This document shows positions 32,820 to 51,534 of a stretch of DNA of 64,000 bases, in pieces. This stretch comes from an uncultured Chloroflexia bacterium (GTDB taxonomy: Bacteria; Chloroflexota; Ktedonobacteria; Ktedonobacterales; Ktedonobacteraceae). Position 1 is the first letter of the stretch. Every line of letters begins with the position of its first letter. The stretch spans positions 67,517 through 131,516 of the forward strand of contig CAVYFA010000001.1 of assembly GCA_963767715.1 (NCBI GenBank), written 5' to 3'. The translations under genes were made by a program, and so were the position numbers. The notes under the pieces were generated by a model. It saw only the letters and a list, made by a program, of their open reading frames with translations, searched no databases and was not told the origin of the DNA.

Positions 32820-34827
32820 CTATTTCGAATCCTCACGAGTTTGTTCGATCAAGGTCGTAATTTCCTTTATAAGGGCCTTCTCGATAGAATAGGGGATAAC
32901 CTCGTGCAGACATTGTTCTGCAAGTGAAATGATATACATTTTGCTCTTATCATCCGCCGTGTGAAAAACTTTGAGAAGTTCTCTCATTATGCGATTCGTG
33001 ATACTTCTATCTTTACGGCTTAAATATGCTACAGCGAGCAAAAATGGTTCCCACCAGGTTTTATCAGGGTAAGATCCTTTAGTAACCAAATCCCTAACTA
33101 CGAACGAGCGAGCACGCCGATGATTGATGTTGCGAATGATATAGCGAGCAGCAAAATATTCTTGAAAAGTCTGATGATAAAATCCATATTCATTACCTAC
33201 ACAACGAACAAAAAGGCCACTGCGTTCACGAATACGCTCTAAAAATTGCTCAGCATCTTGCACTAAGTTAGTATTCATTGAGTGCCTTAGTGAAAGAATA
33301 ACTTCATCATGAGGTATAAATTTACGACCTTCTGACTGCATCGTTACAGCAAGGTCACCAAGACAGTTTATGGCCCAAGATTCTCGATTGGTGGAAGCGC
33401 CCTGCTTTCGCTATGACCTTCTAGTAGAAGACTTGTAGCTACTTCAAATAGTTCAATGCGTTGGCTAGGGAAATCCACTTTCTCCTCCCGAAAAAAAACC
33501 ACTACTAACAAGTAAAGCAACAAAGGATTGCTTGCTAGGTATTCCAAGTGAACATCACTATTAATAGCATCACCCAGGGTTTTCGCTCTTTTCTTTGCTT
33601 CGTCCAAAACCTCATTTTGTCTTAAATGAAAGCCTGGATTATTGGTAGCAAATTCGCGGCAATAGTCATTTAATAATTGTTCGATCTGAGTCCGTGTCAA
33701 GAGCGCGAGGGTGTAGAAAAAACATTCTACATCAGGAAATGCGTTGTGATCGAAACAAGCGGCTCGTGAAGTAATAAGGAAGCGATTATAAAAAGCAAGG
33801 CGTCCTCTCTTATAATATTTGATAAAACCATTGATGTCTCTCTGGACCCGAATGCGAATTTCTCTACCTACCTCGTCTAAACCATCAAATAACACAATGC
33901 ATCTCCCATCTTTCAGATACCTTTGAAGGATAGGAAAATGATCTTTCCAGTTTTCCTGCAAATATGATGTGATGGTAGCATCCATATGTCCGTCCTCGAT
34001 AAATTTAACATACTCTCTTAAGTTCAACAATATAGGAAATAATAGGGGATGAAGGCTTTGAAATACAGACAAATTGTAAATAAAATCGCTGCTCTTAAGA
34101 ATTGACGCTGCATTATTTAATCTGAGAAGCACGAGCATTCGCTCAGCAATATCATGCCAGCGATTTAGATGCTTAGTGGCCATATGGAAAGCAAGCCCTG
34201 CTAAGAGGGTGCTTTTCCCCATACCAGGATAACCGAGAATGACAGCTACCGGTCTTTCTCTCGTCAATCCATTCCAAATATAAGGAAAGTTGATTCTATT
34301 ATCCTCTTCAAGAGGTCCATACCAGCTTTTCTCATTCTTGAATAGCAGATACTCCTCAAATAGAGAGTTATTATTAATAGGAAATTCGTCATCGGCGTAT
34401 TCGGGTAGAAATCAGGAGAGGAAAAAATTGTCTTTAGCAAGGCGCTTCGACCTCTTATGTAAGTAGGGAGTCCTTCTGGAATAAGCATTTCCGTTTCCAC
34501 CTTCACGGAATGGAGATAATCACTCAACAACTTTCTTTGTGAAGGAGGGATTTCGACATCTCTTACTAAGAAGAAAAGGAATCGCAAGAGAAAGAGTATC
34601 AAAAATAGTAGGATGACGCTAATTGGATTTTGAAAACTCCATTCAAAAGCAGATCGGAGGTGATTAAGCCATAATTGGGGTAATGGTATAATTGGGCTTA
34701 CAGTATTGGCTACTATATCCACGAAAACGGCAAGAATAACAGAAATAAATACAAAATTTATGATAGGATTTAAAGTGCGGGATACTTTTGCAAGGAAAAC
34801 ACGTTGAGTAGAATCTTTATCTTGCAC
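32820..34827 (-). CDS. STAND NTPase (NACHT-like) with an N-terminal transmembrane region, on AT-rich DNA; currently split into three ORFs (34264-34827, 33368-34267, 32820-33341)
   Basis: Walker A 'VAVILGYPGMGKSTLLAGL', Walker B 'CIVLFDGLDEV', 'FLITSRAACF' (the NACHT arginine/sensor region) and a helical C-terminal extension. The upstream ORF encodes about four TM helices and overlaps by ATGA. GC is far lower than the surrounding genome. Confidence 0.6.
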
Positions 34828-35126
34828 GTTCGAACCCTTTCTACTGCAGAAACACGTTGTCTTTTCGGCTTATCAGATCAAGCTAGCAATTCGTTTTTCA
34901 GTGTAAAATGGTAGTGACGTTTGCGTTGTTTCGTGTAATAGCATTTACACAAGAGTAATAGAATGCTTGACACGAAATATTAATCAGAATATACTACCAA
35001 AGTATAAATAAATCAATTAAGGAATTGGGTTGAATTTGTTTTCGGATTAGTAGAAGGCGCTTTCTACAGAGGAAAAAGGCTTATGGAGCCCTATAACTTG
35101 TCGGCAAAAAGAGAGGAATAGTACTT

Positions 35127-35752
35127 ATGGAAGACCTCGAATCCCAGGATAGCCACGATTCACTATCTTTCGAACCTGCCAGTTCAGCAGTCGAAACCGC
35201 TGAGATGGAAGTTGCTAATTCATCCTCCATGGGGATATACCGGGATGTAATCGAGCAGGCGATTTTGCCACTACTTGTGGAATTGCGCGAACTTCGCCAG
35301 GACTTCGATACCAAGATCAAGTATGACGAGAGCAAAGAACGTCAGGTAGACAGCCTCCACAGAGAGTTGCAAAGCTACCGTGAGGGACTGCATTTTAAGA
35401 TTTACGCCCCCTCTTCATCGACCTCATCGCTGTGTATGATGATTTTGCTAAGCTCACAGAGAGTATGTCACTCCTTGAGTCGAATGATATCTCAAGTCAA
35501 ACCGTTGACAATCTGAGGTCATTCCAGGAAACGATTGAAGATATTTTAAATCGTAATGGGGTCGAGTCCTATAGCGTTGAAGGAGATAATTATATTCCCA
35601 ACCGGCAGCGCGTCTTGCAGGTCGTTGACACATTCGACCCTGCACAGGATAGGCTGGTTGCACGCCGAATACGTAAGGGTTTTGAGTATGAGGGCCGGGT
35701 GATACGTCCTGAAATCATCGCAACGTATAAAACTAGACAGGACAAAGAATAA
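35127..35752 (+). CDS. GrpE-like nucleotide exchange factor (frameshift at the CCCCC run ~35405)
   Basis: The C-terminal ORF 'FDPAQDRLVARRIRKGFEYEGRVIRPEIIATYK' matches the GrpE β-domain. N-terminal helical region is present. The frame break coincides with a 5-C homopolymer. Confidence 0.6.
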
Positions 35753-35808
35753 CCATTTCCTTTAACTAGAAAGTGATTCAGATAAAATTTAGATACTAGA
35801 GAGGAAGA

Positions 35809-37482
35809 ATGATAATGAGCAACGAGGAAACCGTAGTATTCGGGATCGACCTCGGTACAACCTATTCGTGTATCGCTTATGTTGATGAGTATGGCAAGCC
35901 GGAAGTCGTCACAAATGAAGAGGGTGAACGTACAACCCCCTCTGTCGTTTTGTTTGAAAGCGCTGATGAAAGGGTCGTGGGTAAGGTCGCCAAAGAAAGT
36001 GCGGTGCTCTACCCAACGAAAGTGATCCAGATGGTGAAACGACATATGGGTGAGGAGAACTGGGAGCTCGAGTGTGATGGATTGCATTTCACCGCCGAGG
36101 AAATATCTTCCTACATTCTGCGCAAGCTGGCAAAGGATACAGAAGCTCAACTCGGCCGCCCGGTCACAGACGTGGTGATTACTTGCCCTGCCTATTTTGG
36201 TATTGCTGAGCGCGAGGCTACCGCCAACGCCGGAGAAATAGCCGGGCTGAACGTGCGTGAGGTGATTAACGAGCCAACCGCAGCAGCTATTGTTTACGGC
36301 CTCCAGAATGAACAGGATCAGGTTGTACTTGTCTATGACTTGGGCGGTGGTACCTTTGATATCACGGTGATCGAGATTAAAGCTGGCACAATTACCGTTG
36401 TGGCTACGGGCGGTGACCACAATCTGGGAGGCAAAGATTGGGATGCCGTAATTGTGGAATATCTGGCGCAGCAATGGATGGATGAGGCTAGTTCCTCGGA
36501 CGATCCCACAAGTTCTGAGGAGACATTACAGGACCTGTGGTTACGCGCGGAATCAGCAAAGCGGACACTCTCCGCTAAACAGGAAACCAATGTTCCTGTC
36601 ACTCATGCAGGCCAGCGCAAGGGAATTGTATTAACACGCGACAAATTCAACGAACTGACTAACAATTTGCTCGAAAGAACTATAGATTTTACCAAATCAA
36701 CGATTGAGGCAGCGAAGAGTCGCGGCTACACGCAATTTGATCAAATTTTGCTGGTGGGTGGCTCGACTCGCATGCCTCAGGTACAGGAACGCTTGAAGGC
36801 AGAGTTTAGTATCCCACTCAAGATGCATGATCCTGATGAGTCGGTCGCGAAAGGCGCCGCGATCTACGCACAGAAACTGACGCTCGATCAGAAGATCCAG
36901 CATAAAATTGCTGAGCTAACAGGCACAAAGATTGATAATGTTGATCAATCCAAGGTCTCTGAGCAGGTGCTGGAGCGTGCGCAACAGGAAGTAGCTCGCG
37001 ATTTCAGGCTTAAAAATCGGCATGGTGAAAAAGTACGCCGAGATGGAAGTTACCAACGTGGCAAGCCACAGTTTCGGTATTATCGCGATAGATGCAAGGA
37101 CAAACTCGGAGGTCATCTCCAACATTGTGCTTGCCAACCAACCCGTCCCCGCTTTCCAGACGAAAACATTCCATACCCTTGAAGCGGGGCAGCGTGAAGC
37201 CGACTCAAAGTCATGGAGAACGGATACGAGACTGAGGTCGTCAACGACATCACTGCTGGTGAAGAGATTGGCAAAGCGTTGCTGTCATTGCCTTCTGGAT
37301 TGCCCATCAATACACCGGTCGAGGTCACGTTTGAGCTAAACCGAGAAGGGAGGCTCCAGGTGATCGGTCGAGAACCAAGAAGCAATGCAACTATCGAGGT
37401 TACTGTACAGACGAAGCGGGGAATGTCTGAAGAAGAGGTGGAGCAGGCGAAGACTCGTGCAAACCGTGTAGCCATTTCATAG
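35809..37482 (+). CDS. Divergent Hsp70/DnaK-family ATPase (#1), ~555 aa, two apparent frameshifts in the substrate-binding-like region (~37030-37210)
   Basis: NBD motifs 'VFGIDLGTTYSCIAY', 'DLGGGTFDITVIEI', 'GGSTRMPQVQERL', 'DPDESVAKGAAIYA'. The C-terminal β-rich segment continues in ORFs 37022-37339 and 37213-37482. Confidence 0.85.
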
Positions 37483-37567
37483 TCGGTGCGTAATAATTTT
37501 GTAAAAATGTAATTGACGACATCTAGTTTAAGTACCAATCAGGGGCCTTCCCTAGAGGGAGGATAGG

Positions 37568-39645
37568 TTGAATAGTTTTGTCGGCATCGATCTCGGAACA
37601 ACTTACTCCGTGATTGCCTTCATCAATGCAAACGGCAAGCCAGAAATTATCCCTAACGAGTATGGACATGCGACGACTCCTTCAGTCGTCTACCTTGGTG
37701 GCGAGAAGCTGGTTGTCGGCGAAGATGCCAAAGAATTCCAGGCCATGGGGAAACAGGAGGTTGCCTCTTTTTTCAAGCGCAACATGGACGATATCTACTT
37801 TATGCTGTCGTTCAATGGAAGAACTACACTCCTGTAGACCTCTCAGCAGAAGTTCTTGCGTATATGAAAGCCCAGGCAGAGCGTCATTTGGGCAGTCCGG
37901 TAATCGATGCCGTGATTACTGTTCCTGCCTATTTCACACACGTGCAACGTTCCGCAACAATCAAAGCCGGGCGTAAGGCGGGCTTGAACGTCCTTAAGAT
38001 TATAAGCGAACCTACTGCCGCCGCACTGGCCTATGGGTTGCGCCCCAGCAACGAAAGACAGCGCGTGCTGGTTTACGACCTTGGTGGTGGCACCTTTGAC
38101 ATTTCGTTAGTTGAGATTACTCCCAACGAAATCAAAGTGCTGACCACTAATGGAGATCACAATCTGGGTGGCAAAGACTGGGATGATCGCTTAATAGAAT
38201 ACGTCGATAGCCTGTTCCGTGCGGAATTCAGCACGGACCTGATTGGGGACGACTTTAGCGAGTTGCGCATCCAGTCTGAAAGACTTAAGCAAACACTCTC
38301 TTCGCGCCAAAGCGGGGAGGTCCGCGTGCAGGCAGCAGGCAATGCCGGTACCTATTCAGTGACAAGGGAGAAGTTCGAGGAGCTTACGCTCGACTTAATG
38401 GAACGCACACAAATGCTGACAGAGCTTGTCTTGTCTGAAAAAGGCCTGACCTGGCAAGACCTCGATGGCGTTTTGCCCGTTGGCGGTTCGACCCGGATGC
38501 CAATGGTGCGTAACTATATCCAGCGTATGTCGGGGAAACCTCCCATGGCGGGCATCAATCCCGACGAAGCGGTTGCTCTGGGCGCTGCCATTCAAGCAGG
38601 CATGGAGATAGAGACGGGGCGAGATGCCAATCAGCCGATTTTTCGCCTAGCTGGGCGTAAATCCACCACAGACGTGATCGCTCACAGCCTGGGCATGATT
38701 GCAGTAAACGACGACCGTACGCGCTATATCAATAGTATTCTAATCGGAAAAGACCTGGAAATACCCTCAGCAAAAACACGACCTTACACAATGAACATCC
38801 GCCAACGGAGCGAGACGGAAATGGAGGTCTTTTTGACGCAGGGCGAGAGCGAAGACCCCCAGCAATGCGCCTATCTTGGCCGATATATCTTCTCAGATTT
38901 TCCGCCCATTGCCAGTAAAACAACGCCTGTGGATGTAACCTATGAGTACGATAAAAATGGTGTCGTGCACGTCTCCGCTGTCGAACGTTCAGCCGGTACG
39001 CCCTTGAAATTGCGTGTCGAGCCGGTTCCTCCTGATGTACCAGCGCGTTTTACCGGGTCGCCTAAAGATCAAGAAGTGCGCGAACATTTAACGGTATACC
39101 TGGCCTTCGACCTTTCTGGCAGTATGAGCGGTCGCCCACTTAAAGAAGCGAAGCGAGCCGCCGAGAAATTTGTCAGTCAGTGCGACTTGTCCTCTACCTC
39201 GCTAGGCTTGATCTCCTTCTCGGATAGCGTACAAGTTGACCAGAGCGCAACTCAAAATGGGAGAGAGATCATGCGGGCCATTGCCGGTCTCACCATCGGG
39301 CGAACCGGATATGGAAACCTCGGTCACCCCTTTAATGAATTATATAATCGCCTGATGCAGGCTCCAGGTATACGTTATGCAATCGTGTTGGCCGATGGTG
39401 TCTGGTCCCACCAGGACACCGCTATCAAGCACGCGAAACATTGCCATGAGGCTGGCATTGAAATAATCGCCATCGGCTTTGGAGGAGCCGATCGCGCATT
39501 CCTTGCGAAAATCGCATCGTCGTCCGAACAGAGTTTTTTCACAGACATGAGTCGGCTGGCAGAAACATTCAGCACCATCGCTCAGGAACTGACAGAGTCG
39601 GGAGGCGAAAAACGGCCCTTTGGAAAATTGGGCTGGAAGCCTTAA
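37568..39645 (+). CDS. Hsp70/DnaK-family ATPase (#2) fused to a C-terminal von Willebrand factor A (vWA) domain; one frameshift ~37815-37825 (aaa to aa)
   Basis: NBD 'FVGIDLGTTYSVIAF', 'DLGGGTFDISLVEI', 'GGSTRMPMVRNY', 'NPDEAVALGAAIQA'. C-terminal MIDAS 'VYLAFDLSGSMSG' plus 'IVLADGVW'. GGGAGGA RBS with a TTG start. Confidence 0.85.
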
Positions 39646-39681
39646 ACGAGAGTAGTTATAGAAGCGGAGATCTCGTAAAAA

Positions 39682-42600
39682 ATGGCTGGAGAGCAAACGA
39701 CCGCCAAACCTAACTTTTTCATTCTGCTCGGGTTCCATCCCGATGATCCCTGGGATCAGAAGAAGTTTGAGGAGACGCTGAAAGCGAAACGCGGTGAATG
39801 GTCGCGCAAAAGCAGCGGCGTAGGTAATGTGGAATGGAGGCCAGGAGAAATCTCGCGCTCTACGGTGAGATTAAGCAGTCATGGCCGACAAGACCAGGCG
39901 CGACGCCGAGGCAGAAGCAGCCAGAAAGGAACGGCTGGCGGGGCAAAGCGCGAAAATAGACCAGTTCGAGCGGCAGGTAGAAATGCTCGCCAGAAAAAGC
40001 TTTCTGGAACAAACCGAAGTTGACAGACTGGTTGCTGACTTTAAGGATGTTCTCACAGAACGAGAGATCAGAGCCGTATTAAAGTGCCGGTTAAAGCATC
40101 CGATCCCCAGGTCGGAAAAACGCAACAACAACTTGAGCCAGCGACTGTCAAGGCCATCAACCAGCGGCTCCAACCGCTCCAAAAGAAAGACCTCTATGAC
40201 TTGCTGGGGATGTCACCGAGCGTCTCAAGCGATCAACTTCTCAAGGCCGCACAAGCACTGGCCGAAGATATGCTGCGCCGCCAGCCAAAGACGCAGGAAG
40301 TCACCATGCAGGCGGAACTGGCGGGTCACGCAAAAACGATTTTCAAAACCCAGGAGATGCGCCAGAAGTACAACGAATCTTTGCGTTATAGCACTCTGAA
40401 TGCGCTTTTAGAGGAGTTTGAGCAAACCGTCGCCATTCAAAAGGGTCGCCTTTATGCCGGGCAGGTGGCCACGTTTCTGGAACAGGCAGCCCGCGCGCGC
40501 TGGTCAAAGGAAGAAGCGCGCGCCAAGTTGAACGAGTATGCCAAAAAGCGAAGTTGGTTGTCGAGGTGCCGACTATCGAGATCGGCAACGAGAAACAGCG
40601 CTGCGGTGACTGTGAAACGATGAACGACAAAGGGCGCGAATATTGTGTCAAGTGCAACGGTCAACTCCGTTTCACCTGCCCAGATTGCGGCAACGCTGTT
40701 AGCTCTGACGAAGTTGGATGCGGCAAATGTGGTTTTCCCGTTGGCAATCGCTACTGGGTCGATAGCCTTCTCACTGAATGCCAGACGCTGCTGACTCAGC
40801 ACGATCTGAAGGCTGCCAATGAGCAACTCATGCTGGCGGAAGAGGCCTGGACGCCAAAGAAACCCGATACCCGTCTCAAGCGGATCCAGGAGTATCGCGC
40901 CGAAATCCGCCGCCATGAGCAGGCTCAACAGCAGAATATTGAGCAACTGAAAGCATATATCAATAAGCACCAATTCTTCACCGCGCGCGATTACCTGGCA
41001 CAGCAGCCACCGGATGCCCTCCCCGATAAAGAGAGCTATCTGCAAATCATCACGGGCGAAATTACCCAGGCCCAGGCACTGCTTAAAAAGACCAGGACAA
41101 TCACCGATACTACTCAGAAGTTTGATCTGTGTGTTCAGGCGCTGCGCATCTGCACAGATTATCAAGAGGCGCGAGATGTCTTGAGCACTACCCCACCTTC
41201 CCCCCCCAAGAATCTCAGCGTAAAGGTTGGCGACTCCACAATCAGCTTACAGTGGAACCCCTCGCCGACACGCGACGTCAGCTACATAATTGTGCGTAAA
41301 ACGCGCTCGCGGCCGGTATCGGTGAAAGACGGGCAAATTCTCGCAAGGGTCGGCGGGCGCATGTACGATGACACACAACCGGAAATTGGCATATCGACCT
41401 TCTACTCCGTTTTTGCTGCCTTTGAAGATATTACTTCTATCGAGGCCGCCACACTGCAGCACCCCATTATGCTTACAGCAGAAGTGGAAGACATAAAAAA
41501 GCGTATTGACAATCGGCTGGTCGAGCTGACCTGGAAAGCTCCTCAAAATGTTCATACAATCATGGTTGTGCGCAAGGAGAAAATGGCTCCTGCTTCCGTC
41601 GAGGACGGGGTAAAGGTCGCGCCGCTAGACCTGCAGCACTTGGTTGATCGAACCGTGAAAAACGAGTGCCTCTACTTTTATAGCATTTTCTGTCAGTTCA
41701 AAGATCATGATGCACGCATTATCACAACGACAGGGATGACGGTAAACGCAACACCAGAAACGCCTCCTGAGATCATCCGGCGTTGGATATTTCGAGCCAG
41801 AAAGTTGTCAAGGGCTACGATGTAAAGCTGCGTTGGGCCACACCCCCCAAGGGTGAGGTCGTCATACTTAAATCAGCGCAGCCTCTTGCTGTGAGAGCCG
41901 GTGAAGCACTGGCGATACGCGAACTCACCCGCTTTGGAAATTTACTGAAAGAACATCCCGATTCCTGCACCGATCGAGAGGCACATCCAGGTGTCGCATA
42001 CTACACGCCGGTCGTTATTTTTCAGGGTACCGCCTATGTCGGTGCGGCGCAACGTCTTGCGTTGATAGACGACGTGAGCGATCTCAGATATCAAAATCTC
42101 GGCTCGGCCATACGTTTAAACTGGAACTGGCCCGCGAATTGCCAGGAGGCTATAGTCGCCTTCGACTATAATGGGTATCCGCAGTTAAACGGCAGAACGC
42201 CCAATGCGCACAAAGTGATGCGCGCAGAATATGAGCACAGAGGATTTTATGATATTCGCGGAAACATGGAGCGAGATCACTATATCGTCGTGGCGGCAGT
42301 AATCCGGCAGGGCAATGACGAGATAATTGGTCCTGGCGCACGGGTGCAGGCTCGCCTGATCAGCAAGATTGTTCTGAGCTATGAGATCAAGCTTCCACGC
42401 TTGTTCGGCCCAAAGAAGCGTATACTCAGCATCTCATCGCGTACGGCAGGCAAATTGCCCAACCTGCTACTGGTGAGCAAACAGGGCCGATTGCCCTTGC
42501 GCCGGGAGGAAGGTGAAGCCTATTTTCGCCTGCAGGGGCCAATCCCGATTGAGAGTACGCTGGAATTTGAATTGCCGGACAAGTCGTTCGGCCCTAAAAC

Positions 42601-42688
42601 GTTCGGCAAACTCTATCTTGAAGATGATGGACTGTATGAGATGGTGACGATTCACCATCCCAGCGAAGATAAGTTGAGGCTTTCATAA
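39682..42688 (+). CDS. Large multidomain protein (~1000 aa, 3-4 frameshifts): degenerate J-like N-terminal segments, a double zinc ribbon and four FN3-like β-sandwich repeats
   Basis: 'NFFILLGFHPDDPWDQKKFEETLKAKRGEW' and 'DLYDLLGMSPSVSSDQLLKAAQAL' look like J-domain helices but lack HPD. 'CGDCETMN...CVKCNG...CPDCGNAV...CGKCGFPV' is a double zinc ribbon. Repeats are marked by 'PPKNLSVKVGDSTISLQWNPS', 'LVELTWKAPQN', 'VKLRWATPPKG', 'IRLNWNWPAN'. Confidence 0.45.
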
Positions 42689-42692
42689 TGCA

Positions 42693-43861
42693 ATGTTAGG
42701 CCAAAAGATTATCTGCCCATTCTGCTTCGAATCATTTTCGGTCCAGGAAATACAATTTCGCTGCCTCAATCCCAGTTGCACTGGACGAGCGGTCGATCAG
42801 ATCTATGCCGAAGCGCGAAATGTCCCACCATTGCAGATGGGCCACGTAATCAGCGCAAAAAAGACCTCTTTCGGGGTGGCCCGTACGGTCGATTGTGATG
42901 TGTGCAAGAAGGAAGCGCGCACGCGCCTCTGTCCCAGGTGCCATTTTGAGCTTTCCCACGATGTAGGGCAGGTCGATCAAAAAATCATTGCGATTATCGG
43001 CGGCAGCAATACCGGTAAGAGCCACTACATCGCTTCGCTAATCACTCGTTTGCAGCATGTCGTTGGCGGGAACTTCAATTTCGCCGTCTCTATGCTCGGT
43101 GACGGCACAAGAGAACGCTGGCACAGGGATTTCTACACGCCCCTCTTTGAGAACAAGCGGGTGCTTCAGCCAACACAGCGCTCAACTGTCGATACCATTG
43201 TAAAGACCCCACTGATCTTCCGGCTGACATTCAAAGATGGCAACAACATACGAGCATTGAATATCAGCTTCTTCGATACTGCAGGTGAGGATATGTCCAA
43301 ACTACAGGTCGATGCCCTCTCAGTTGAAGCCCGTTATATCTGCAAAGCTGATGGGTTGATCGTTTTGCTCGACCCTCTCCAGATCGAAAGCGTTCGCCAA
43401 CAATTACCCAACATACAAAAGCCATAGCCAGACCCGATGGCACGCCCCGAATTTATCGTTGAGCGTCTACGCGAGCTGATGGAAGGCTATCATAATCTGT
43501 CCGGTTCGAAAAAAATTTCTATTCCGGTCGCTTTCACTTTCTCCAAAGTCGATACGCTCAGGAGCATTGTTGCTCCTGATTCGGCATTCTCCAGCACAGC
43601 ACGCACTATGGTGAGCTTGACCTCCCCGACGTACAATCGGTGAGTACCGAAATCGGTAACTACGTGCAAGCCTGGATTAATACCGGTTTCTACAATGAGA
43701 TCGATTATAAATTCGCCAACTATCGTTTCTTCGGCGTCTCTTCCCTGGGCAACCAACCTGATTCTTCTGGACAGGTCAAGGTCGAGCCGCTGCGCGTTGA
43801 GGACCCTTTCCTGTGGATACTGCATCAGTTTAAGATGGTCAAAGGGAAGAAAGGGAGGTAA
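42693..43861 (+). CDS. Double-zinc-ribbon-fused P-loop GTPase (~390 aa; frameshifts at ~43430 and ~43640)
   Basis: N-terminal 'CPFCFE...CLNPSCTG...CDVCKKE...CPRCHFE'. G1 'IIGGSNTGKSH', G3 'FFDTAGED', G4 'FTFSKVD', G5-like 'GVSSLG'. The C-terminal 'VEDPFLWIL' is shared with the 47122 paralogue. It starts 4 nt after the previous stop. Confidence 0.65.
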
Positions 43862-43863
43862 TT

Positions 43864-46800
43864 ATGGCGGTTTTCCAGCATTATTACACATCATACGTCA
43901 ATAGGGAGACAGGAAGCGCGGGATTTCAGGTCAAAGCGATGTCGCCCGGAATCGCCGCCGATACGCAATCGACCATTACACGCCTGATATCATATCGTAT
44001 TCCTTCCAGGCTTGACGAGTACGCTATCTCTACACATCCCGTGGCTTTGCGTTACTACTATCGAAATCCGCAAGAAGCGATTTTACTGTGCAGTCAATCC
44101 AATGGGACTGACGAAAATGGGCGTCCCGGCAATTTTTTTGCGCATAGCCTGGTAGTCGAGCCCGACTTTTTCGCCAGTATGCCGCCTATTTTATACTGGC
44201 GCAGCCCTTTCTGGCGTACAAAGGACCCAGGATCAAGCGCGGTGATAGAGCCGATAGAAAGCCTGGAAGAGATCGCAACAGCGCTTGATATCGAGGGGGT
44301 ATGGCATTTCCTCGCTCAAGGAAAACGCATCGAACAATTCCATAAGCTCATGAGCGCCGTCGTGCATTGCAACAGTACACAACGCCGCATTGTGATTATT
44401 GACAACGCAGATAACGTTGCGCAGTGGATCGCGGCGATCACGATCATGTTGCCGCCCGACTACCGGCCATTACTCAGTTTTGCCACCTATCATCATGATC
44501 CCTACCAGTCGCAATTTATGGTGACGGGCACGACCAGCGATTCTTCGTTCCGCGCTTCGCCTGAAGAGTATATGAGCTACTTCATACTGAACACACAGAA
44601 CGGCAAGATCAGTGATGTCGAAGCTTCGCCTTACGCCGATGAAGCTGTCAGAGCTGCTCGCTCTTATGAAATCTACGAGTCGAAACTGCTCTCTCTTATC
44701 ACAGATACCGTGCCGCGTTTCCAGCGTCCAACCCGCATTGATGAGCAACTCGATTCAATGGCGTTGTATGCAGGGATGCTCGAGCCAAACCACGCGTTCT
44801 CTTTAAACAGAGAAGAACTGGAAGCAATAAGTGTAGTCCTGACAACATTTGAACAGATGCGCGTTTTTACGCAAGAAGACCTGGACGAAGTGCGACAGAT
44901 AAGCTATCTGCTCCAGGAAACATCTTGGTCCCAGAGTGCTGAGGATATCGATGTCGAAAGCCGGCGTGTGGTCACTCTGCTCAGAAAACATAAAGCGCCA
45001 ACAGAACAGTCAGCGCTACGTGAGATAAAGTATATCACACAGCACCTTATCAACGATGTAGATATATCGTCATCACTCCAACGCCTGGAAAACATGCGCC
45101 AGATTTACGGCGAAGATCTATTGATCGATATTGTCAACAGTACTAACTACCTACAATGGCTGAACAAGCTTGCCGAAACAATCAATGCAGCACAACTGTC
45201 ACAAATCTGGAAATACCTGGCTGTTTATCTCAATCCAGGCCCCCACAGCCAACCTTTTACGATAGCCAGTTTAACAATCGTGGGGATACTCTGGAGTGAC
45301 AAACAGGCCCAGAAAGACGTAAGAAGGGCGATCGAGGCTATGGTACAGGCAATGGCTGGACAGGAAGCTGCCTGGCTGGAACTAATTGCGGCAAACTACA
45401 ATGTGCTGCCAGACGGGATACTCCTTCGTTACTACTGCTGGATGATGGTTGGCCGATTCCCTCTTGACAACCGCCTACCCTATCGAGAGATTGTGCAGCG
45501 TGTGATTCCCCACATCATTAAAAATGAGCTTGTCCACGAAATCTCTAAAGCCGGTGAAGCCAATAGTCTTGCGATACTGGAGGAATGGGTTGATCATGCC
45601 AGAAAGAATCACTTGGTATCGCTCACAGATTTGCTGATCGAAGGTATTAAACGTATCTTGAGGAATACCCCAGATGGAAAAGCGCCAGAGATGGCAGCGA
45701 AAATTTTAGTGAATGAAAGGTTGGCGCCACTGCCAACGGAATTGGAGAATGATCTTGTTTCTACAGCCATATCACAGGTTTCACTGAGCCATTACTCGCC
45801 CTTAGTGCTGGAGTTATGTAAGAAGTACAGAAACCGGCATGGCCTCTCATCCGATATTCGCGCCGTCATGGATGGGCTGATAGCCATGTCAAGCGGAGAG
45901 TTGGATGAGGAACTCGCGAAGCGCCTGCAAGACAGATTTGCTAGCATGCGACCAGAAGCGTACGAGGCGGATACAAAGAGCTTTGTAACTCGATTTCTCC
46001 AGGTTTGTACCACGGGTCGCTCTCATCAGCTCATGATAAATACCTTCTTCGATTGGGATTACCCTAAGACATTTTGGCAAGTCTACTGGCGTGCATTCAC
46101 GGGATTGCTAACCTATCCAGATACCTCAAGAGTGGATCAGGCGATGAAACTCTTGTCGTTCTGGTTCAGTGCTAGACCGGATGACTTTGAAAGCGCGTAT
46201 CTCTTACACAACTTTCTCATGGATTTACCTCAAAAACTTGAAGAGGTGCAGGAGACCCGCGGCTTCCAAGAGGCAGCACGATATATCAATTCTAGGGCCG
46301 AATCAGAGCGATGGTATCCTCTGGTGCAGGATTACTTTTCGGGTCGAACTAGTGCTTTGCAGACAGTAGGGCGAACCCTGGCTACGCATATCCAGAAACT
46401 CAGAGCAGAAGATAGTGAAAAGGCCGCCCGACAGGCAGAAAAAGAGCAGAGAGAACGCGCAGCCCTTGATGAGCGCATCTCAGCGATGTTTGATAAGAGG
46501 AAATCGAGCCAGTATCATCTTCGGATAGTTGGCGATGTCTATGAATGGCAACAGCGTGAGCTTTTCTGGTCAATTTATTGGAGCCATTTCAAATCTTTGT
46601 TCACCTCTGAGAATAATGCGCAGTGCATTCTTGATCTCTTCCACTTCTGGTTTGACGACTCGTTCTCAGTTCTGCCACAGAAAGGATATATTCCCCGGCA
46701 GTTCTTCCTCAAATTGCACGATGCTTTGATGGAGGCGCAGAAAGAGCGAGGTTTCCGTGAGCTCGCTCGCAACATCTTTAGAATAGGAAAGCAACAGGTG

Positions 46801-46878
46801 CAAGTCTACCCATGGTTTGTATTGATACAACCCTACCTTGAGGAACAGGAAAAGCGGTTTGGTATCTTCAGGCGATAA
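43864..46878 (+). CDS. Large (1004 aa) predominantly α-helical protein of unknown function; candidate GTPase-associated component
   Basis: GGAGG RBS. Uninterrupted ORF. N-terminal α/β-like region 'MAVFQHYYTSYVNRETGSAGFQVKAMSPGI' followed by ~800 aa of helical repeats. It lies between the two DZR-GTPase genes. Confidence 0.55.
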   Translation: MAVFQHYYTSYVNRETGSAGFQVKAMSPGIAADTQSTITRLISYRIPSRLDEYAISTHPVALRYYYRNPQEAILLCSQSNGTDENGRPGNFFAHSLVVEPDFFASMPPILYWRSPFWRTKDPGSSAVIEPIESLEEIATALDIEGVWHFLAQGKRIEQFHKLMSAVVHCNSTQRRIVIIDNADNVAQWIAAITIMLPPDYRPLLSFATYHHDPYQSQFMVTGTTSDSSFRASPEEYMSYFILNTQNGKISDVEASPYADEAVRAARSYEIYESKLLSLITDTVPRFQRPTRIDEQLDSMALYAGMLEPNHAFSLNREELEAISVVLTTFEQMRVFTQEDLDEVRQISYLLQETSWSQSAEDIDVESRRVVTLLRKHKAPTEQSALREIKYITQHLINDVDISSSLQRLENMRQIYGEDLLIDIVNSTNYLQWLNKLAETINAAQLSQIWKYLAVYLNPGPHSQPFTIASLTIVGILWSDKQAQKDVRRAIEAMVQAMAGQEAAWLELIAANYNVLPDGILLRYYCWMMVGRFPLDNRLPYREIVQRVIPHIIKNELVHEISKAGEANSLAILEEWVDHARKNHLVSLTDLLIEGIKRILRNTPDGKAPEMAAKILVNERLAPLPTELENDLVSTAISQVSLSHYSPLVLELCKKYRNRHGLSSDIRAVMDGLIAMSSGELDEELAKRLQDRFASMRPEAYEADTKSFVTRFLQVCTTGRSHQLMINTFFDWDYPKTFWQVYWRAFTGLLTYPDTSRVDQAMKLLSFWFSARPDDFESAYLLHNFLMDLPQKLEEVQETRGFQEAARYINSRAESERWYPLVQDYFSGRTSALQTVGRTLATHIQKLRAEDSEKAARQAEKEQRERAALDERISAMFDKRKSSQYHLRIVGDVYEWQQRELFWSIYWSHFKSLFTSENNAQCILDLFHFWFDDSFSVLPQKGYIPRQFFLKLHDALMEAQKERGFRELARNIFRIGKQQVQVYPWFVLIQPYLEEQEKRFGIFRR

Positions 46879-46906
46879 AAGTGTCGCAGAAAGGAAAGAG
46901 TTTACA

Positions 46907-47104
46907 ATGGACGATGGGTGCGTAGCAATCCTTGGCTTTATCGTGATTGCTGCTATTGCGATTGCTCTGATCGTGTATGTGGTTTTACCACTAAGTTTGT
47001 TCTTACTTGGTAGCGTTGTTGCCGCTGGAACGGTCTCTGGAGTAGGGGTAGCAGGGAAAAACTTTTACGAATTACTCGTAGAAGCTCACAAAACCATAAA
47101 GTAA
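46907..47104 (+). CDS. Small (65 aa) two-TM membrane protein
   Basis: AGGAAAGAG RBS. 'CVAILGFIVIAAIAIALIVYVVLPLSLFLLGSVVAAGTVSGVGVAG'. Confidence 0.4.
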   Translation: MDDGCVAILGFIVIAAIAIALIVYVVLPLSLFLLGSVVAAGTVSGVGVAGKNFYELLVEAHKTIK

Positions 47105-47121
47105 GTAGAAAGGGATGCCAT

Positions 47122-48654
47122 ATGGCTATTTTCGAACCCCAACCCGCATTTAAGATATACGCGTTTGAACGGGGCTGGCGCATAATGAAATATGTCACAG
47201 AGAACCTCTTCAAGCGCACCGATGTTGCTGCTCGCTGGTGGTTTACAAAGGCGGAAGATGCTAAGACGCGCAGTACAACTCAGGGAGCATTTGTAAAGTA
47301 CTGGATGTATGTATATATGGCAGGGCTGTATCTGGCTGGTGGTGCGCAGTACGTTTCCGCCATGATACTGGCTGCTCTATTTCTGCTAGTACAGTCAATC
47401 CTCCTCTCGCTCTGGGTTGTGTTCTCTATCATTACCATAGGCATCCTTTGGCTCTGTACATTTGCCTACTCGCGCCTCTATCGCATATTCTACCGCTGCC
47501 CTGACTGTCACAAGGAAATGAGCATCCCCACCTTCATTTGCCCGAACTGTAGCGAGAAGCATTCGCAATTGTGGCCCAGTATCTACGGCATCGTCTCACA
47601 TTGTTGCATCAAGTGCAATACCAGGCTCCCCACATTGCGCATAGATATTCCGGGGATGAAACTCAAGAAACGCGATAGCCTCGTTCGCATTTGCCCAAAT
47701 TGCTCCAGTCAGATCAACGCAGCCATTGGAACGGGGACAAATATTCATTTCCCAGTTGTAGGAGGACCTTCCACAGGTAAATCAAACTTCATCGTCATGG
47801 CCACGAAAGAATTTATCCAAACCTATGGCGATGAGCATCACTACTCGATCTCCTTCACTGATAGTAGGCACGAGCTAGATTTCAATGAGAATGTCAGGCG
47901 ACTCTCGACCGGACACGCGCTAGTCGCGACGACGGAGGTTGTGGCTCGGGCCTATAACCTGAAGATCCAATCTCCGAAAGCGCATGTGCCGAAGATTGCC
48001 TACATATACGATGCCGCAGGTGAGGCATACAACACCAGTGAGAACACCTCACAGCAAGAATATTACAAGTATATCGATGGGATAATCTTCGTGATTGATC
48101 CTTTCTCTATTCCGACTTACCGCAGCCAGCATGTCCAGGCAATTGAACACTATCAGAATCTGATCCGCCCAAGTTCGCTGGATGTAATGCAGGCATACGA
48201 GCGCATGTTCAATATGTTTGAAGATTTTGCAGGCTTGCGCAAGGGACGTCGCTTTACTCATCCGATCGCGGTCGTGGTGACAAAAGTCGATGCGCTCAAC
48301 CTGGAATTTGAGATTGGATCAATTGCCGCTCAGCAGACAATGAGTACCACTCCTTCTCTAGCATCTGAGGGCGATGCAATTAATTTGCTGGTACGCAACT
48401 TCCTGTGCCAGAACGACCTTGATCACTTCGTCCGCGATATCGAAATGCAATTCTCTAATGTGCGCTACTTCTCCTGTTCTGCACTTGGACGTATGCCGGT
48501 GCAAGAGGATAACCGCAGCTTCATGCCCGTGCGCGTCAGTGACCCGTTTATCTGGCTACTAGCACGCACTAAAGCTATCGACGCCATACCGAATACCGGA
48601 AGGGTAACGCGCGTCCTCGGCCCACAAGTCATGACTATGCGACAAGAGAACTAA
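47122..48654 (+). CDS. Membrane-anchored double-zinc-ribbon GTPase (paralogue of the 42693 gene), 510 aa, intact
   Basis: TM helices 'YLAGGAQYVSAMILAALFLLVQSILLSLWVVFSIITIGILWL'. 'CPDCHKE...CPNCSEKH...CCIKCNT...CPNCSSQ'. G1 'VVGGPSTGKSN', G3 'IYDAAGEA', G4 'VVTKVDA', G5 'CSALG'. C-terminal 'VSDPFIWLL'. Confidence 0.7.
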   Translation: MAIFEPQPAFKIYAFERGWRIMKYVTENLFKRTDVAARWWFTKAEDAKTRSTTQGAFVKYWMYVYMAGLYLAGGAQYVSAMILAALFLLVQSILLSLWVVFSIITIGILWLCTFAYSRLYRIFYRCPDCHKEMSIPTFICPNCSEKHSQLWPSIYGIVSHCCIKCNTRLPTLRIDIPGMKLKKRDSLVRICPNCSSQINAAIGTGTNIHFPVVGGPSTGKSNFIVMATKEFIQTYGDEHHYSISFTDSRHELDFNENVRRLSTGHALVATTEVVARAYNLKIQSPKAHVPKIAYIYDAAGEAYNTSENTSQQEYYKYIDGIIFVIDPFSIPTYRSQHVQAIEHYQNLIRPSSLDVMQAYERMFNMFEDFAGLRKGRRFTHPIAVVVTKVDALNLEFEIGSIAAQQTMSTTPSLASEGDAINLLVRNFLCQNDLDHFVRDIEMQFSNVRYFSCSALGRMPVQEDNRSFMPVRVSDPFIWLLARTKAIDAIPNTGRVTRVLGPQVMTMRQEN

Positions 48655-48663
48655 AGGCCGTTT

Positions 48664-48882
48664 GTGTTAATGAAGAAAGGAGAGAAGAGAGTGATGAGTG
48701 AACGCGATGCAATGAAGGCAACAGACAATTCAGGAGTACGATACAAGCAAAACGATGGAGCTAACCGCTCTGGAGCTAGACGCCGCGAGGGACTGGCTAA
48801 GGAGACAGATGCGTTCGAGGCGCGCAGGAAGAGCGCTGAAAATCTGAAGAAACGCAGCCGCCACGAAACCTTTAGGCAGTAA
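48664..48882 (+). CDS. Small highly charged hypothetical protein (72 aa)
   Basis: Composition resembles the 49137-49391 segment (R/E/K/A/N-rich). AGGAGAGAAG precedes the start. Weak call. Confidence 0.25.
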   Translation: MLMKKGEKRVMSERDAMKATDNSGVRYKQNDGANRSGARRREGLAKETDAFEARRKSAENLKKRSRHETFRQ

Positions 48883-49136
48883 GAGCGGGAAAAATATCTG
48901 ATCCAGCGAACGGGAAGTTTTCTTGCATTATAAAGAGGGCACAACTCAAGTGATGCAAGGCAACAACTAGCAGCACGAGGTCGACACCAGGCAATTAGAG
49001 AGGAGCGTGTGCAGAAGCCGGAGCGAGTATGAGAGGAACTGCTCAAGGGCAAGCAAAAGGGGAGAGGTTTATTTCGTTCCAACCGGAGCAAAGTTAGAGC
49101 TTGTGTTCAGTTGATAGGGATTGAGAGAAATGATGA

Positions 49137-49903
49137 TTGATTATGCATAATCGTGAAGGGGCAGAATTTACCGAGAGGCAATCTCAAAGTAAGGATAATG
49201 CATTTGAAAGACGTCACGCAGGCTTCAGGTCTAGTAGAGATGCAGGAGCTCAAAGTGACGCATATAACGCTAATGAGCGAGTTAAAACGGCATCAAGCAG
49301 ACTGGAAGATGGTAATCGGCATCGGGTTTTTAGATCGGAGGAGACTTCTACCAAAGCCCAGCAAGATAAAGTCATGAGTATTCTGACCTGAGTGGCCAGG
49401 AAACAGAGAGAAGACAATTTTCTACAATTGAAGGACGCACTGTTCGGTTATCCCAGGAGGAAATCAAAGCGGTCAAATCGGCACTGGCTACTGAGCAAAG
49501 TATAGACAAAAACCGGTTTCCGCCTGAAAAGACGGCTGCGGCTGTTGAAGGTGGACCCTGCACCCTTAGTGGATGGGAACATGGGAAAGAGGATTTTGTA
49601 CAGGCAATGGAAGATGTGAGAATACGCTCTCAGCAAATTGGGCACGAGCTGAGGCCCCACAAGCTATTCGATAGAGGAGTTCCTGGACGATTCAATGCAT
49701 CTCATGCAGAGAAGCAGATATCAGTCGTTGCTCCTGATAAACCAATTGCTGTCTCAAAGCCAATGTGCTCAGATTGCCAATCATATTTTCGAGCCACCGC
49801 ACGATACACAGAGAAATCGCAAGTCGTTGCTGATTCTCGTGTAGTGAGGATTTTTTATCCTGATGGTAGAGTTGTAGAGTTACCAAAAAGTACATTTGCA
49901 TAA
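49137..49903 (+). CDS. Candidate toxin: charged N-terminal region joined (frameshift ~49388) to a C-terminal deaminase-fold-like domain (HAE...PMCxxC)
   Basis: 'GRFNASHAEKQISVVAPDKPIAVSKPMCSDCQSYF' has the zinc-ligand spacing (H-x-E, then ~24 aa, then PC-xx-C) of the nucleic-acid/nucleotide deaminase superfamily. The reading frame is open from 49388 without an ATG and continues the 49137 ORF after a 1-nt shift. Confidence 0.35.
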
Positions 49904-49916
49904 TAGGAGCAAAATA

Positions 49917-50582
49917 ATGTCGCTTCCAACTGAATTGACCCAGGTCATCAAGAATGCGCAGGATGCTGTGGAGAAGCATCCATACCACGATTTAAATCTT
50001 GGTTATCGACAGGCTATCTGGGCCGCTCTTGGGCCTTCTCTAAAAACATCTCAAAGAGGTGGTAACAATGCCGGTTTAAAGAGGCGCGCCTTTTTAGCAA
50101 TACTAACAACGCGATATGTCTTGCCAATTTGGGAACGGGTCAGGCCAGAAGATCATATCCTACAAGACCTGCTTGCCGAAGCGGAGCAGGTTTTGACCGG
50201 CACTGTTGACAAGGAAACGGCCTGGAATGATAGAGACCGGTTTTGGGTATATTTTGTTGATATGGGGAACGAAGATGAAAAAAAACAAATCATTTCAGGC
50301 GTGGGTTTTGCTGCAGTTCATGCTCTTACTGTTGCGTTGCAGGATGAAAGTTTTGATCCTTCTAACATAAACTACAATCTCACGGATGCTGACATAGACC
50401 CGGACGAGATGGACTCCTCCTTCTTCGCTGCCTCTACCTATGCCAATGGTCCGGTTTCGGAACCAGATTCTGATGCTGAGAAACGACGAGATTTTTGGGA
50501 GTGGTGGTCAACCAGGCCGTTCCTGCTGCCTGGAATGCTGCTTCTTAAAGAGCGCATAGTAATGCTTGACTCAAGCGTATAG
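49917..50582 (+). CDS. Candidate immunity protein (acidic, helical, ~220 aa), overlapping the end of the deaminase-like gene
   Basis: AGGAG RBS inside the last codons of the upstream gene, with ATG at 49917. The operonic overlap is typical of toxin-immunity pairs. There is no recognisable catalytic motif. Confidence 0.4.
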   Translation: MSLPTELTQVIKNAQDAVEKHPYHDLNLGYRQAIWAALGPSLKTSQRGGNNAGLKRRAFLAILTTRYVLPIWERVRPEDHILQDLLAEAEQVLTGTVDKETAWNDRDRFWVYFVDMGNEDEKKQIISGVGFAAVHALTVALQDESFDPSNINYNLTDADIDPDEMDSSFFAASTYANGPVSEPDSDAEKRRDFWEWWSTRPFLLPGMLLLKERIVMLDSSV

Positions 50583-50605
50583 GCTGACTGATAGGAGAAC
50601 CGACA

Positions 50606-51534
50606 ATGCCATACATAAAATGTACTACTTGTAATTATAAAATCCAGCTTCCACAACCAAAACCGGTATGTCCTGCCTGCGGTAGGCCTTTCACCGTCCC
50701 AGGTTCGGGATCAACCGCGAAGCCTGTTCCTGTGCCAGCTCCAACCGGCTCCGCTATCCGCCTGTGCCGGTACCTCCACCAGTCCCCCCAATACCAACGC
50801 CGTCAGGTGCACCAGTCCCGCCGGTTCCAACATCAACTGTTTCGGCGCTTGGACCATTGCCACCCGGAATGCCATCTCGCGTACCGGATTTAGAGGGGGA
50901 GATAGCCCTTCCGCCTAAACGGGCCCCAACAAATTCCACTCGACTGGTCCCAAAAGATACTAAAAGGACTGTTCTTCCCTTTCTTCATGCGAGAGATGCA
51001 AAAACAGGTTCTCTCCCCAAACCCACCATGACGGTACATCAATGGCAAATCGAGCGCGCTGGCGATGGGGCCAGCCGCGAGGCTCGCATCGAAGGTGATC
51101 TTGTAGCGGGCCAGCCCAGCCTGCATCAGAAGGTTTCTCTGTGGGGACGTTATCGAGGGGGCCTGCTGATCGTGAAACAGGGCTACAATCATGACACGGC
51201 ACGAAATTCGCGTTCATCGCCCGGTAACGCTCTGGCTCTCACGAGCGGCTGTCGTGGCCTTGCCCCTCTTCATTCTGGCCGCTTTGCTTTTTTCCCGGCC
51301 TCATCCAGTCCGCGATCAGCACGATAGGAGGGCTGATTATCATCGGCATTATCTTTTACGTGGTGATGGGTTTCATCGCTCCCTGGATGCCCAAACGTAT
51401 CCTGAATTTCCTCGTTTTAGCGTTTCTACTCTATCTTGTGGCGGTTGTTTCTTCATGGCTTTGGCGGTACACAACCTCACTAACAGCGAGGAGACCTTAT
51501 GTTTTCTGGTTTTGACCCGAAGTGGATAGAAGAG
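50606..51534 (+). CDS. Zinc-ribbon / Pro-rich linker / C-terminal TM protein (~300 aa, three or more frameshifts)
   Basis: 'CTTCNYKIQLPQPKPVCPACG' ribbon. 'PVPPPVPPIPTPSGAPVPPVP' linker. TM helices 'LWLSRAAVVALPLFILAALLF' and 'GLIIIGIIFYVVMGFIAPW...LVLAFLLYLVAVVSSWLW' lie in alternating frames. Confidence 0.35.

Follow-up and report, generated by a model that had tools for sequence, protein, structure and literature searches.

A Chloroflexota chaperone and GTPase gene row as a variant of the GAP1-N2 double-GTPase systems, with a predicted DENN/longin-like head on GAP1

What kind of machine is encoded by a compact row of chaperone-like and GTPase-like genes in an uncultured bacterium related to Ktedonobacteria (Chloroflexota), and has such a row been described before? 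The genes in question occupy positions 35127-48654 on the + strand of a 64,000-nucleotide (nt) stretch of contig CAVYFA010000001.1 (hereafter the window, to which coordinates refer unless a related locus is named), and an initial annotation, made from the letters alone, had read them as a predicted NTP-dependent conflict system whose arrangement may be undescribed. Because Pfam names DO-GTPase2 and GAP1-N2/GAP1-M among the matches, the locus is assigned here to the GAP1-N2-type double-GTPase (DO-GTPase) systems and, within them, to the theme that includes HSP70 and GrpE. The 'GTPase-centric systems' built from DO-GTPases and GAP1, and predicted to be immune-like, were set out by Kaur, Burroughs, Iyer and Aravind (eLife 2020, PMC7159879), and the Pfam families built for those systems match both GTPases and the 1004-amino-acid (aa) protein of the row, so the class had been named correctly. 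The arrangement had already been described, because the window matches the HSP70-GrpE theme in the account of Kaur et al. point by point. Overall, the observation made in the initial annotation was partly confirmed and its interpretation partly supported.

The row was present in the order first given for it, and was rebuilt from a fragmented list of open reading frames (ORFs) by retrieving intact relatives and placing their proteins on the window by dynamic programming that allows for frame changes. By our count it comprises nine genes rather than eight once the gene of a 65-aa membrane protein is included (coordinates are given here for eight), and its genes are spaced by 2-85 nt rather than by 0-30 nt. 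A G+C content (GC) of about 50% against about 62% had been reported; the value of the core is indeed 0.50, but the flanks have 0.57 and 0.60. Profile searches gave the Pfam families GrpE, HSP70 (twice), VWA, DZR, DO-GTPase2 (twice) and GAP1-N2 with GAP1-M for the proteins of the row, in keeping with the domains proposed from the letters. Only three ORFs are intact, namely those of GAP1 (43864-46878), the 65-aa protein (46907-47104) and GTPase B (47122-48654).

The assignment is carried by the two GTPases and the protein between them. DO-GTPase A (42693-43861, +), with two zinc ribbons and a TRAFAC GTPase domain, matched DO-GTPase2 (PF19993) at 47.4 bits (cut-off 27) and is 91% identical to its counterpart in the related locus L001, while DO-GTPase B (+, 510 aa) matched the same family at 43.3 bits and is 85% identical to L001. 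Both carry a G1 motif of the form GxxxxGKS (GGSNTGKS at 42999 in A, GGPSTGKS at 47761 in B), a Walker B motif with a glutamate (DTAGE at 43275, DAAGE at 48010) and a G4 motif S/TKVD (SKVD at 43542, TKVD at 48280). Two Cys4 ribbons precede the G domain in each protein, as had been noted for these double-zinc-ribbon GTPases; direct reading gives CPFC...C..SC and CDVC...CPRC in GTPase A, and CPDC...CPNC and CIKC...CPNC in GTPase B (47491-47715). A crude hydropathy scan predicted one or more transmembrane (TM) segments near the N-terminus of GTPase B (about 47332-47472, a hydrophobic block at residues 71-117) and no C-terminal TM helix, and GTPase B had no sequence relative in the PDB. The GAP1 (GTPase-associated protein 1) gene (43864-46878, +, 1004 aa) starts 2 nt past the GTPase A gene and matched PF20013 (GAP1-N2) at 83.9 bits and PF20014 (GAP1-M) at 56.8 bits (cut-off 24). 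The small intact gene between GAP1 and GTPase B (46907-47104, +) encodes a 65-aa membrane protein with a hydrophobic stretch at residues 1-50; it is 85% identical to the L001 gene at the same position, where a gene of 65-67 aa is also found in L002-L007 and L010.

The upstream half of the row encodes a chaperone module. The GrpE-like nucleotide-exchange factor (35127-35752, +, about 207 aa after correction) matched Pfam GrpE at 38.4 bits (cut-off 25.8) and is 73% identical to the intact L001 orthologue. Hsp70-1 (35809-37482, +, about 555 aa, 89% identical to L001) consists of a nucleotide-binding domain, a beta substrate-binding domain and a short lid; it matched HSP70 at 364.7 bits, its best PDB match was DnaK (E 2.8e-86), and its motifs GIDLGTT, DLGGGTFD and GGSTRMP are intact. 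Hsp70-2 (37568-39645, +, about 692 aa, 85% identical to L001) matched HSP70 at 321.9 bits over profile positions 121-497 of 599, so that the beta substrate-binding region is kept, and by direct reading its ATP-binding motifs are intact. The reported fusion of one Hsp70 to a vWA/MIDAS domain was borne out, as Hsp70-2 carries a C-terminal vWA domain (about 39094-39555; VWA 70.1 bits) with the MIDAS motif DLSGS (DxSxS) at 39109, and the same fusion was found in most related loci. Both Hsp70s lack most of the helical lid, and their NCBIfam DnaK scores of 357 and 314 bits, obtained with partial queries, compare with equivalog cut-offs of 648-1019.

The fourth chaperone-related gene (39682-42688, +) encodes a protein of about 1003 aa, 76% identical to L001 in the frame-aware alignment, in which an N-terminal helical segment is followed by a J-like domain (about 40162-40404), a double zinc ribbon (about 40602-40733; Pfam DZR 25.4 bits), a helical linker and, from about 41193, FN3-like repeats with a beta-rich C-terminus. 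When a profile of the J-like segment (residues about 165-245) was searched against the PDB, nine of the ten top matches were J domains, covered in full at E values of 0.002-0.03; a direct hhalign comparison with the J domain of Escherichia coli DnaJ gave an E value of 8.5e-4 at a probability of only 24%, and Pfam DnaJ did not match this domain. The lack of the HPD tripeptide, already noted from the letters, was confirmed by alignment in all seven sequences compared (the window and six orthologues), where it is replaced. The FN3-like repeats likewise stood, as the window's own fragment P0140 has a recorded PF25832 (Fn3_SaeA_2nd) match and the orthologues gave fn3 and Fn3_SaeA matches, mostly faint. 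This is the least conserved core protein (35-57% identity, against 51-81% for GTPase A), and a homologue search with a 423-aa fragment returned eight matches, none of full length. A by-eye impression that residues 1-85 might be J-like was not supported (hhalign probability 2%).

These parts coincide with the description given by Kaur et al. (PMC7159879), in which systems of the GAP1-N2 type combine two GTPases, one bearing a pair of zinc ribbons at its N-terminus and the other TM helices, with a protein of rapidly evolving FNIII repeats. A 'second theme', seen in 14% of neighbourhoods, brings in HSP70 with GrpE and a further HSP70 gene, and in it the FNIII protein is fused to a DnaJ or TPR domain. 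The window shares with that theme two paralogous TRAFAC GTPases with the Walker B glutamate, one with a double zinc ribbon and one with predicted TM segments, as well as a GAP1 (N2 and M) directly downstream of a GTPase, an FNIII/J-type protein, HSP70 with GrpE, a second HSP70 and a multicellular-type host, Chloroflexi being among the hosts listed there. It also departs from the theme as that text presents it. The second HSP70 is described there as 'sans its peptide-binding domain', whereas Hsp70-2 keeps its beta substrate-binding domain and is therefore a variant; the Hsp70-vWA fusion with an intact MIDAS site is not mentioned in the passages on the theme; and, compared with the theme, the J domain in the window lacks HPD and no C-terminal TM helix was found in GTPase B. 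Recurrent NACHT, HerA-like and CHAT neighbours are likewise undescribed for the theme in those passages, where it is placed mainly in actinobacteria and firmicutes and the systems are given as nearly absent from cyanobacteria, in contrast to the occurrence found here across Chloroflexota and in Microcystis, Aetokthonos and Ca. Paraprochloron. The locus shares with the MoxR-vWA 'ternary' conflict systems treated in the same paper the logic of an NTPase chaperone, a vWA co-chaperone and variable effectors, and an enrichment in multicellular bacteria, but its NTPases are Hsp70 and GTPases rather than MoxR AAA+ proteins and it has no VMAP or iSTAND component.

Is the row conserved beyond this genome? 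Searching genomes with GAP1 as one sequence gave no relative; searching them with an alignment gave 38 loci. These lie in Chloroflexota (Ktedonobacteria, including four cultured Dictyobacter species, Chloroflexia, Anaerolineae, Ardenticatenales and Aggregatilineales), in Cyanobacteria (Microcystis, Aetokthonos and Ca. Paraprochloron) and in Bacteroidota (Marinifilum). Among the 173 homologues from a first GAP1 search, the named ones came from Ktedonobacteraceae or Ktedonobacterales metagenome-assembled genomes (MAGs), and a profile search of the full library gave 1,903 cluster representatives at E 1e-3 or better out of 1.84 billion. The gene order is conserved in about 25 related loci (L001-L011, L014, L017, L023-L030 and others) and is kept at GAP1 identities of 27-68%, a recurrence that, on these comparisons, is far beyond chance; the neighbourhoods of the homologues, whose lack of conservation had been named as a reason to drop the proposal, are thus strongly conserved. 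Mapping by tblastn showed two blocks, GrpE-Hsp70-Hsp70-vWA and FN3-GTPase-GAP1-GTPase, that remain together although their placement relative to each other shifts; the Hsp70 block is divergent in Anaerolineae and downstream in Microcystis but still attached to the GTPase module. This pattern speaks for a functional link and not for inherited synteny alone. In the Dictyobacter isolates, the interval from the FN3 gene to GAP1 gave no detectable GTPase A gene. Cyanobacterial GAP1/DO-GTPase/FN3 loci were seen in Aetokthonos hydrillicola, two Microcystis genomes and Ca. Paraprochloron (L018, L021, L027, L033); GrpE/Hsp70 module genes lie downstream in L021, L027 and L033, and none was detected in L018. 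Several loci hold a second, divergent DO-GTPase/GAP1 set less than 10 kb from the first (L006 at 15721-23009; L024, L026 and L029 at about 16000-20900; L016), sometimes with another Hsp70-vWA gene, which points to tandem paralogous systems.

The fold of GAP1 raised the further question of what this protein may do to its GTPases. The GAP1-N2 region (about 43873-44256) is predicted to be longin-like and the GAP1-M region (about 44327-44586) DENN-core-like, with an all-helical scaffold following. The AlphaFold models were confident, with a pLDDT (predicted local distance difference test) of 92.6 for the full length (91 sequences) and of 95.4 for residues 1-260; in them, residues 1-110 adopt a longin topology, residues 145-245 form three alpha/beta layers and the remainder is helical. 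The main Foldseek matches were TagF, DENND10, C9orf72-SMCR8, FLCN-FNIP2 and GATOR1. The model contains both an N-terminal longin-type domain (beta-beta-alpha-beta-beta-beta-alpha) and a central three-layer alpha/beta domain of DENN type. The helices after this core may correspond to a d-DENN domain, and 232 residues align with DENND10. At the sequence level, Pfam DENN, uDENN and longin did not match GAP1, a profile search of PDB sequences found neither a DENN protein nor any sequence-related solved structure, and the structural alignments had 9-12% sequence identity. Within GAP1, conservation is highest in the head (50-87% identity), where the invariant residues include R63, D83, R87, G89, N90 and R201. 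At the other end, over residues about 715-1000 (window 46000-46875), a helical module about 115 aa long occurs twice in tandem, the copies being 28% identical (E 3e-14). Homologues with lengths of 833-850 aa align to no more than about 82% of the query and may have this module only once.

Several of the longin/DENN regulators of small GTPases are GTPase-activating proteins (GAPs) with an arginine finger in the longin domain (PMC12290439). DENN and d-DENN were, in an earlier paper from the same laboratory as Kaur et al. (PMC3521125), known only from the DENN module, described as a eukaryotic Rab regulator, and DENN, longin and roadblock are not mentioned in PMC7159879; a literature search found no paper tying GAP1 or TagF to DENN, or longin to conflict systems. 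GAP1 differs from the eukaryotic regulators (DENND1A, a guanine nucleotide exchange factor (GEF) of Rab35, and the GAPs folliculin-FNIP, C9orf72-SMCR8 and GATOR1) in that no sequence similarity is detectable, in that its partners are zinc-ribbon DO-GTPases rather than Ras-like GTPases, and in its additional helical tail of about 750 aa; moreover, the 'GP motif' of GAP longins (PMC12290439) is not evident at the equivalent loop of GAP1. TagF, an accessory protein of type VI secretion (PDB 9t0n, 6iz8), has 9-13% sequence identity to GAP1. It belongs to a secretion system of which the window locus has no genes. We know of no GTPase with which TagF pairs. From the model and these fold matches we propose, tentatively and at somewhat less than even confidence, that GAP1 is a true bacterial DENN-type module (longin plus DENN core) acting as a GAP or GEF of the paired DO-GTPases, with TagF as a second bacterial branch. 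The invariant residues R63, D83, R87, N90 and R201 would be the candidates for such an activity.

The coordinates first given do not enclose the whole unit, since conserved genes continue on both sides, and the flanking NACHT, deaminase/Imm5 and HerA-like genes had been missed. Given the NACHT gene upstream and the zinc-ribbon, deaminase/Imm5 and DUF87 genes downstream, the row is part of a low-GC island of about 22 kb (about 32.8-54.7 kb). Divergent from the row lies a gene for a membrane-anchored NACHT (STAND) NTPase (32820-34827, -; Pfam NACHT 33.3 bits, NPHP3_N), which is split into three ORFs (34264-34827, 33368-34267 and 32820-33341) with a frame change near 34398. Hydropathy predicts two TM segments in its N-terminal ORF, and it is 44-47% identical to the NACHT gene at the same divergent position in L003-L005 and L010. 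Its GC (0.39) is below that of the adjoining row. The NTPase may act together with the system, or its gene may serve defence separately and only travel along with the row.

In relatives, the genes downstream of the row encode small proteins, a protein with a zinc ribbon and a DUF87 ATPase (about 1050 aa), and in L003-L005 a CHAT protease comes next. In the window, a disrupted homologue of the zinc-ribbon accessory protein 'p258' (50606-51327, +), which belongs to no Pfam family, was found by tblastn with the L001 protein (E 1.6e-15, 33% identity, three frame changes), and precedes the HerA-like gene as it does in related loci. The HerA/FtsK-like P-loop ATPase gene itself (DUF87; 51499-54670, +; about 1055 aa in orthologues) is 68% identical to the L001 protein in the frame-aware alignment; the L001 orthologue has Pfam DUF87/HerA and FtsK matches, and the gene adjoins the system in L001-L005, L010, L016, L017 and L020. 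Large CHAT (caspase-like) proteases and a TIR-NB-ARC/TPR pair flank the system in relatives (L003-L005 and L010 at 19599-23042, L006 at 1-893 and L007 at 14969-19795), the typical company of a defence island; the window itself lacks a CHAT gene.

Between GTPase B and the HerA-like gene, the window has a feature of its own. An SsdA-like cytosine deaminase toxin domain (49370-49903, +; Pfam SsdA_C 59.4 bits, profile positions 1-55 of 56) carries the zinc-binding HAE...PCxxC motif as HAEKQ and PMCSDC, and is directly followed by, and overlaps at its end with, the gene of a 228-aa Imm5 immunity protein (49896-50582, +; 125.5 bits). For the deaminase, no start codon was found before 49607 and no N-terminal delivery domain was found, and the 0.7 kb upstream (48664-49391) hold highly charged ORF fragments in other frames. 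The pair may stand alone as an orphan toxin/immunity cassette, or it may be the broken end of what was a larger toxin. It was absent from all 47 related loci compared, and its candidacy as a conserved effector of the system was rejected on that ground. NCBIfam returned nothing for GAP1, the GTPases, Imm5 or the deaminase.

A sigma-70-like match (TTGACA-17-TATACT, 34967-34995, +) about 130 nt 5' of the GrpE start codon had the top score (11 of 12 positions) in a scan of 34700-54690; it is a consensus match only, and the totals of promoter-like sites in that scan, like those of terminator-like sites, were at chance level. No tRNA gene was found in the window and no integrase among the part of the window ORFs that was scanned, and the island is without an obvious mobility signature. 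Elsewhere in the window, a further low-GC stretch (5500-9000, GC 0.42-0.48) holds two minus-strand ORFs (5507-7234 and 7231-8100), and a WD40 beta-propeller ORF beside it (9643-10596) may be part of a fragmented larger gene (8383-11122).

Most genes of the row are disrupted, on which the initial annotation was silent, although its wording 'corrected protein' hints at frame disruption. Frame-aware alignment gave 11 disruptions in five core genes, made up of nine 1-nt deletions, one 1-nt insertion and one TAG codon. GrpE has a deletion near 35400, Hsp70-1 an insertion near 37003 and a deletion near 37202, Hsp70-vWA a deletion near 37820, the J-like/DZR/FN3 gene deletions near 39832, 39873, 40073, 40558 and 41778, and GTPase A a TAG at 43425-43427 (TTA, Leu, in L001) and a deletion near 43584. 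The HerA-like gene has nine frame changes, a TAG at 53283-53285 (TTG, Leu, in the orthologue) and a possible stop at 52041. Both clear in-frame stops therefore share one type of substitution, TAG in place of an orthologue's Leu codon. By eye, no conserved motif was found at the disruption sites, and their relation to homopolymers is mixed, some lying in runs of 2-4 bases and most deletion sites lying outside long homopolymers. Three ordinary genes tested in the window are also split by 1-nt insertions, an SbcC-like gene at 3462, relA/spoT at 17483 and a membrane protein gene at 20579, giving lengths of 804, 525 and 355 aa against 1038, 786 and 568 aa in relatives. As these relatives are at least 90% identical and intact, the assembly has indel errors. 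Such errors occur throughout it, and genes called on this contig need correction before they can be relied on.

Taken together, the explanation we favour, and consider reasonably probable, is an HSP70-GrpE-theme double-GTPase system with a conflict-related mechanism. We infer the immune role and each step that follows from the account of Kaur et al. and from the fold match. A soluble GTPase A and a membrane-anchored GTPase B would pair at the membrane, where the longin/DENN-like head of GAP1 (residues 1-260) would bind the pair and set its nucleotide state as a GAP, a GEF or a docking platform, with the long helical tail serving as a scaffold. The FN3 protein would recruit both Hsp70s through its J-like domain, which, as it has no HPD, would more probably tether them than stimulate their ATPase. 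The MIDAS site of Hsp70-vWA and the FN3 repeats might capture a protein ligand, probably from an invader, and GrpE would reset the Hsp70s. Such a GTP- and ATP-dependent assembly could act as a threshold switch that either sequesters the invader or triggers neighbouring effectors, namely the NACHT NTPase, the HerA-like ATPase and, in relatives, the CHAT protease. A conflict context is seen in the NACHT, CHAT, HerA-like and TIR-NB-ARC neighbours, the deaminase/Imm5 pair, the low GC and the tandem second systems. Several points weigh against this explanation. As the initial annotation had presumed, the literature search on DO-GTPase and GAP1-N2 returned nothing beyond the 2020 paper and no experiment on any DO-GTPase system, so that the defence role is a prediction of comparative genomics; PADLOC has no model for the system and gave no meaningful match; and Pfam recognised no toxic effector in the core. 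The contact between GAP1 and the GTPases is proposed from gene adjacency and from the co-evolution reported by Kaur et al. Finally, the copy in the window may be dead, because of the 11 disruptions in five core genes and the approximately 11 in the HerA-like gene.

The main alternative, which we regard as unlikely though worth keeping in view, is that the gene set encodes cell-biology machinery of a housekeeping or developmental kind and not an immune system. On this view, a membrane GTPase switch, a DENN-like regulator and a dedicated Hsp70/J-like/GrpE chaperone would build or position a large FN3/vWA structure, envelope-associated or cytoskeleton-like, in filamentous multicellular bacteria. 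The closest folds, eukaryotic DENN/longin proteins and bacterial TagF, are established regulators of trafficking or machine assembly rather than of killing, which fits such a role, as do the absence of a toxin from the core and a core order that is unusually stable across Chloroflexota classes, cyanobacteria and Bacteroidota. Kaur et al. (PMC7159879) likewise report that the systems are strongly associated with multicellular organisms, and they propose assemblies 'akin to cytoskeletal structures'. However, the distribution is patchy, the GC atypical and the neighbours vary as in defence islands (NACHT, CHAT, TIR-NB-ARC, HerA-like, toxin/immunity), a single genome can hold as many as two systems next to each other, the family is small (1,903 representatives among 1.84 billion), and an essential system could not tolerate so many disruptions, provided that these are real. 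The more familiar possibility of an ordinary dnaK-grpE-dnaJ heat-shock locus is effectively refuted, as the initial annotation had held. The DnaK-like ATPase motifs of both Hsp70s, the best PDB match to DnaK, a recognisable GrpE exchange factor and the J-domain fold are indeed shared with the housekeeping machinery, but both lids are cut short, one of the Hsp70s carries a fused vWA domain, the HPD-less J-like domain sits inside a giant FN3 protein of about 1000 aa, the scores of the partial queries fall far below the DnaK equivalog cut-offs, the GC is atypical for the genome, and the genes are always linked to DO-GTPase and GAP1 genes and not to a dnaK-dnaJ locus.

A third reading concerns the state of this copy rather than the function of the class, namely that it is a decaying, non-functional relic in which the five upstream genes and the HerA-like gene are pseudogenes, while GAP1, the 65-aa gene and GTPase B alone have stayed intact. 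The events are unevenly spread, with 11 in the 8.5 kb upstream and none in the 4.74 kb from GAP1 to GTPase B (P 0.002 at the upstream rate), and the HerA-like gene has about 11 in 3.2 kb (10 were counted in the test) compared to three in 9.5 kb of ordinary genes (P 1e-4). The two nonsense codons at conserved Leu positions are substitutions of a kind that is less typical where assemblies are prone to indels; nearly every island event is a 1-nt deletion, whereas the background events, three in number, are 1-nt insertions; most deletion sites lie outside long homopolymers, as noted above; and the p162 gene is replaced by the foreign deaminase/Imm5 insert. On the other side, the ordinary genes tested in the window are frameshifted too, which leaves assembly error and real decay inseparable; the core rate of 0.83 disruptions per kb is not significantly above the background of 0.32 per kb (P 0.10); the disrupted genes keep 73-91% protein identity to intact orthologues and have no large deletions; and the same split pattern recurs in orthologous loci of 'MFD' MAGs with megabase contigs (L014, L035, L023) and not in short-read MAGs. 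We hold real decay of this copy to be possible but less likely than not.

With the HSP70-GrpE-theme double-GTPase system as the preferred explanation, the locus adds a Chloroflexota member with variant features to a class catalogued in 2020, which alone would be a modest gain. The class, on which the literature search found no experiment, is tied to multicellular bacteria and combines eukaryote-like parts (an Hsp70 with a J-like partner, vWA and FN3 domains, NACHT and CHAT neighbours). For further work, the error-laden copy in the window is a poorer source than the intact orthologues known from cultured Dictyobacter species and from short-read MAGs. Of most interest among the results is the predicted DENN/longin-like head of GAP1, which is directly testable and offers a first concrete biochemical hypothesis, that GAP1 sets the nucleotide state of both GTPases, probably via its invariant arginines. 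If GAP1 is a true DENN-type module with such an activity, DENN-like GTPase regulation would not be a eukaryotic (or Asgard-derived) invention, and would operate in bacterial systems that use a GTPase switch to gate a dedicated Hsp70/J-like/vWA assembly; should the resemblance stem from common descent, it would bear on the origin of the DENN and longin GTPase regulators of eukaryotes.

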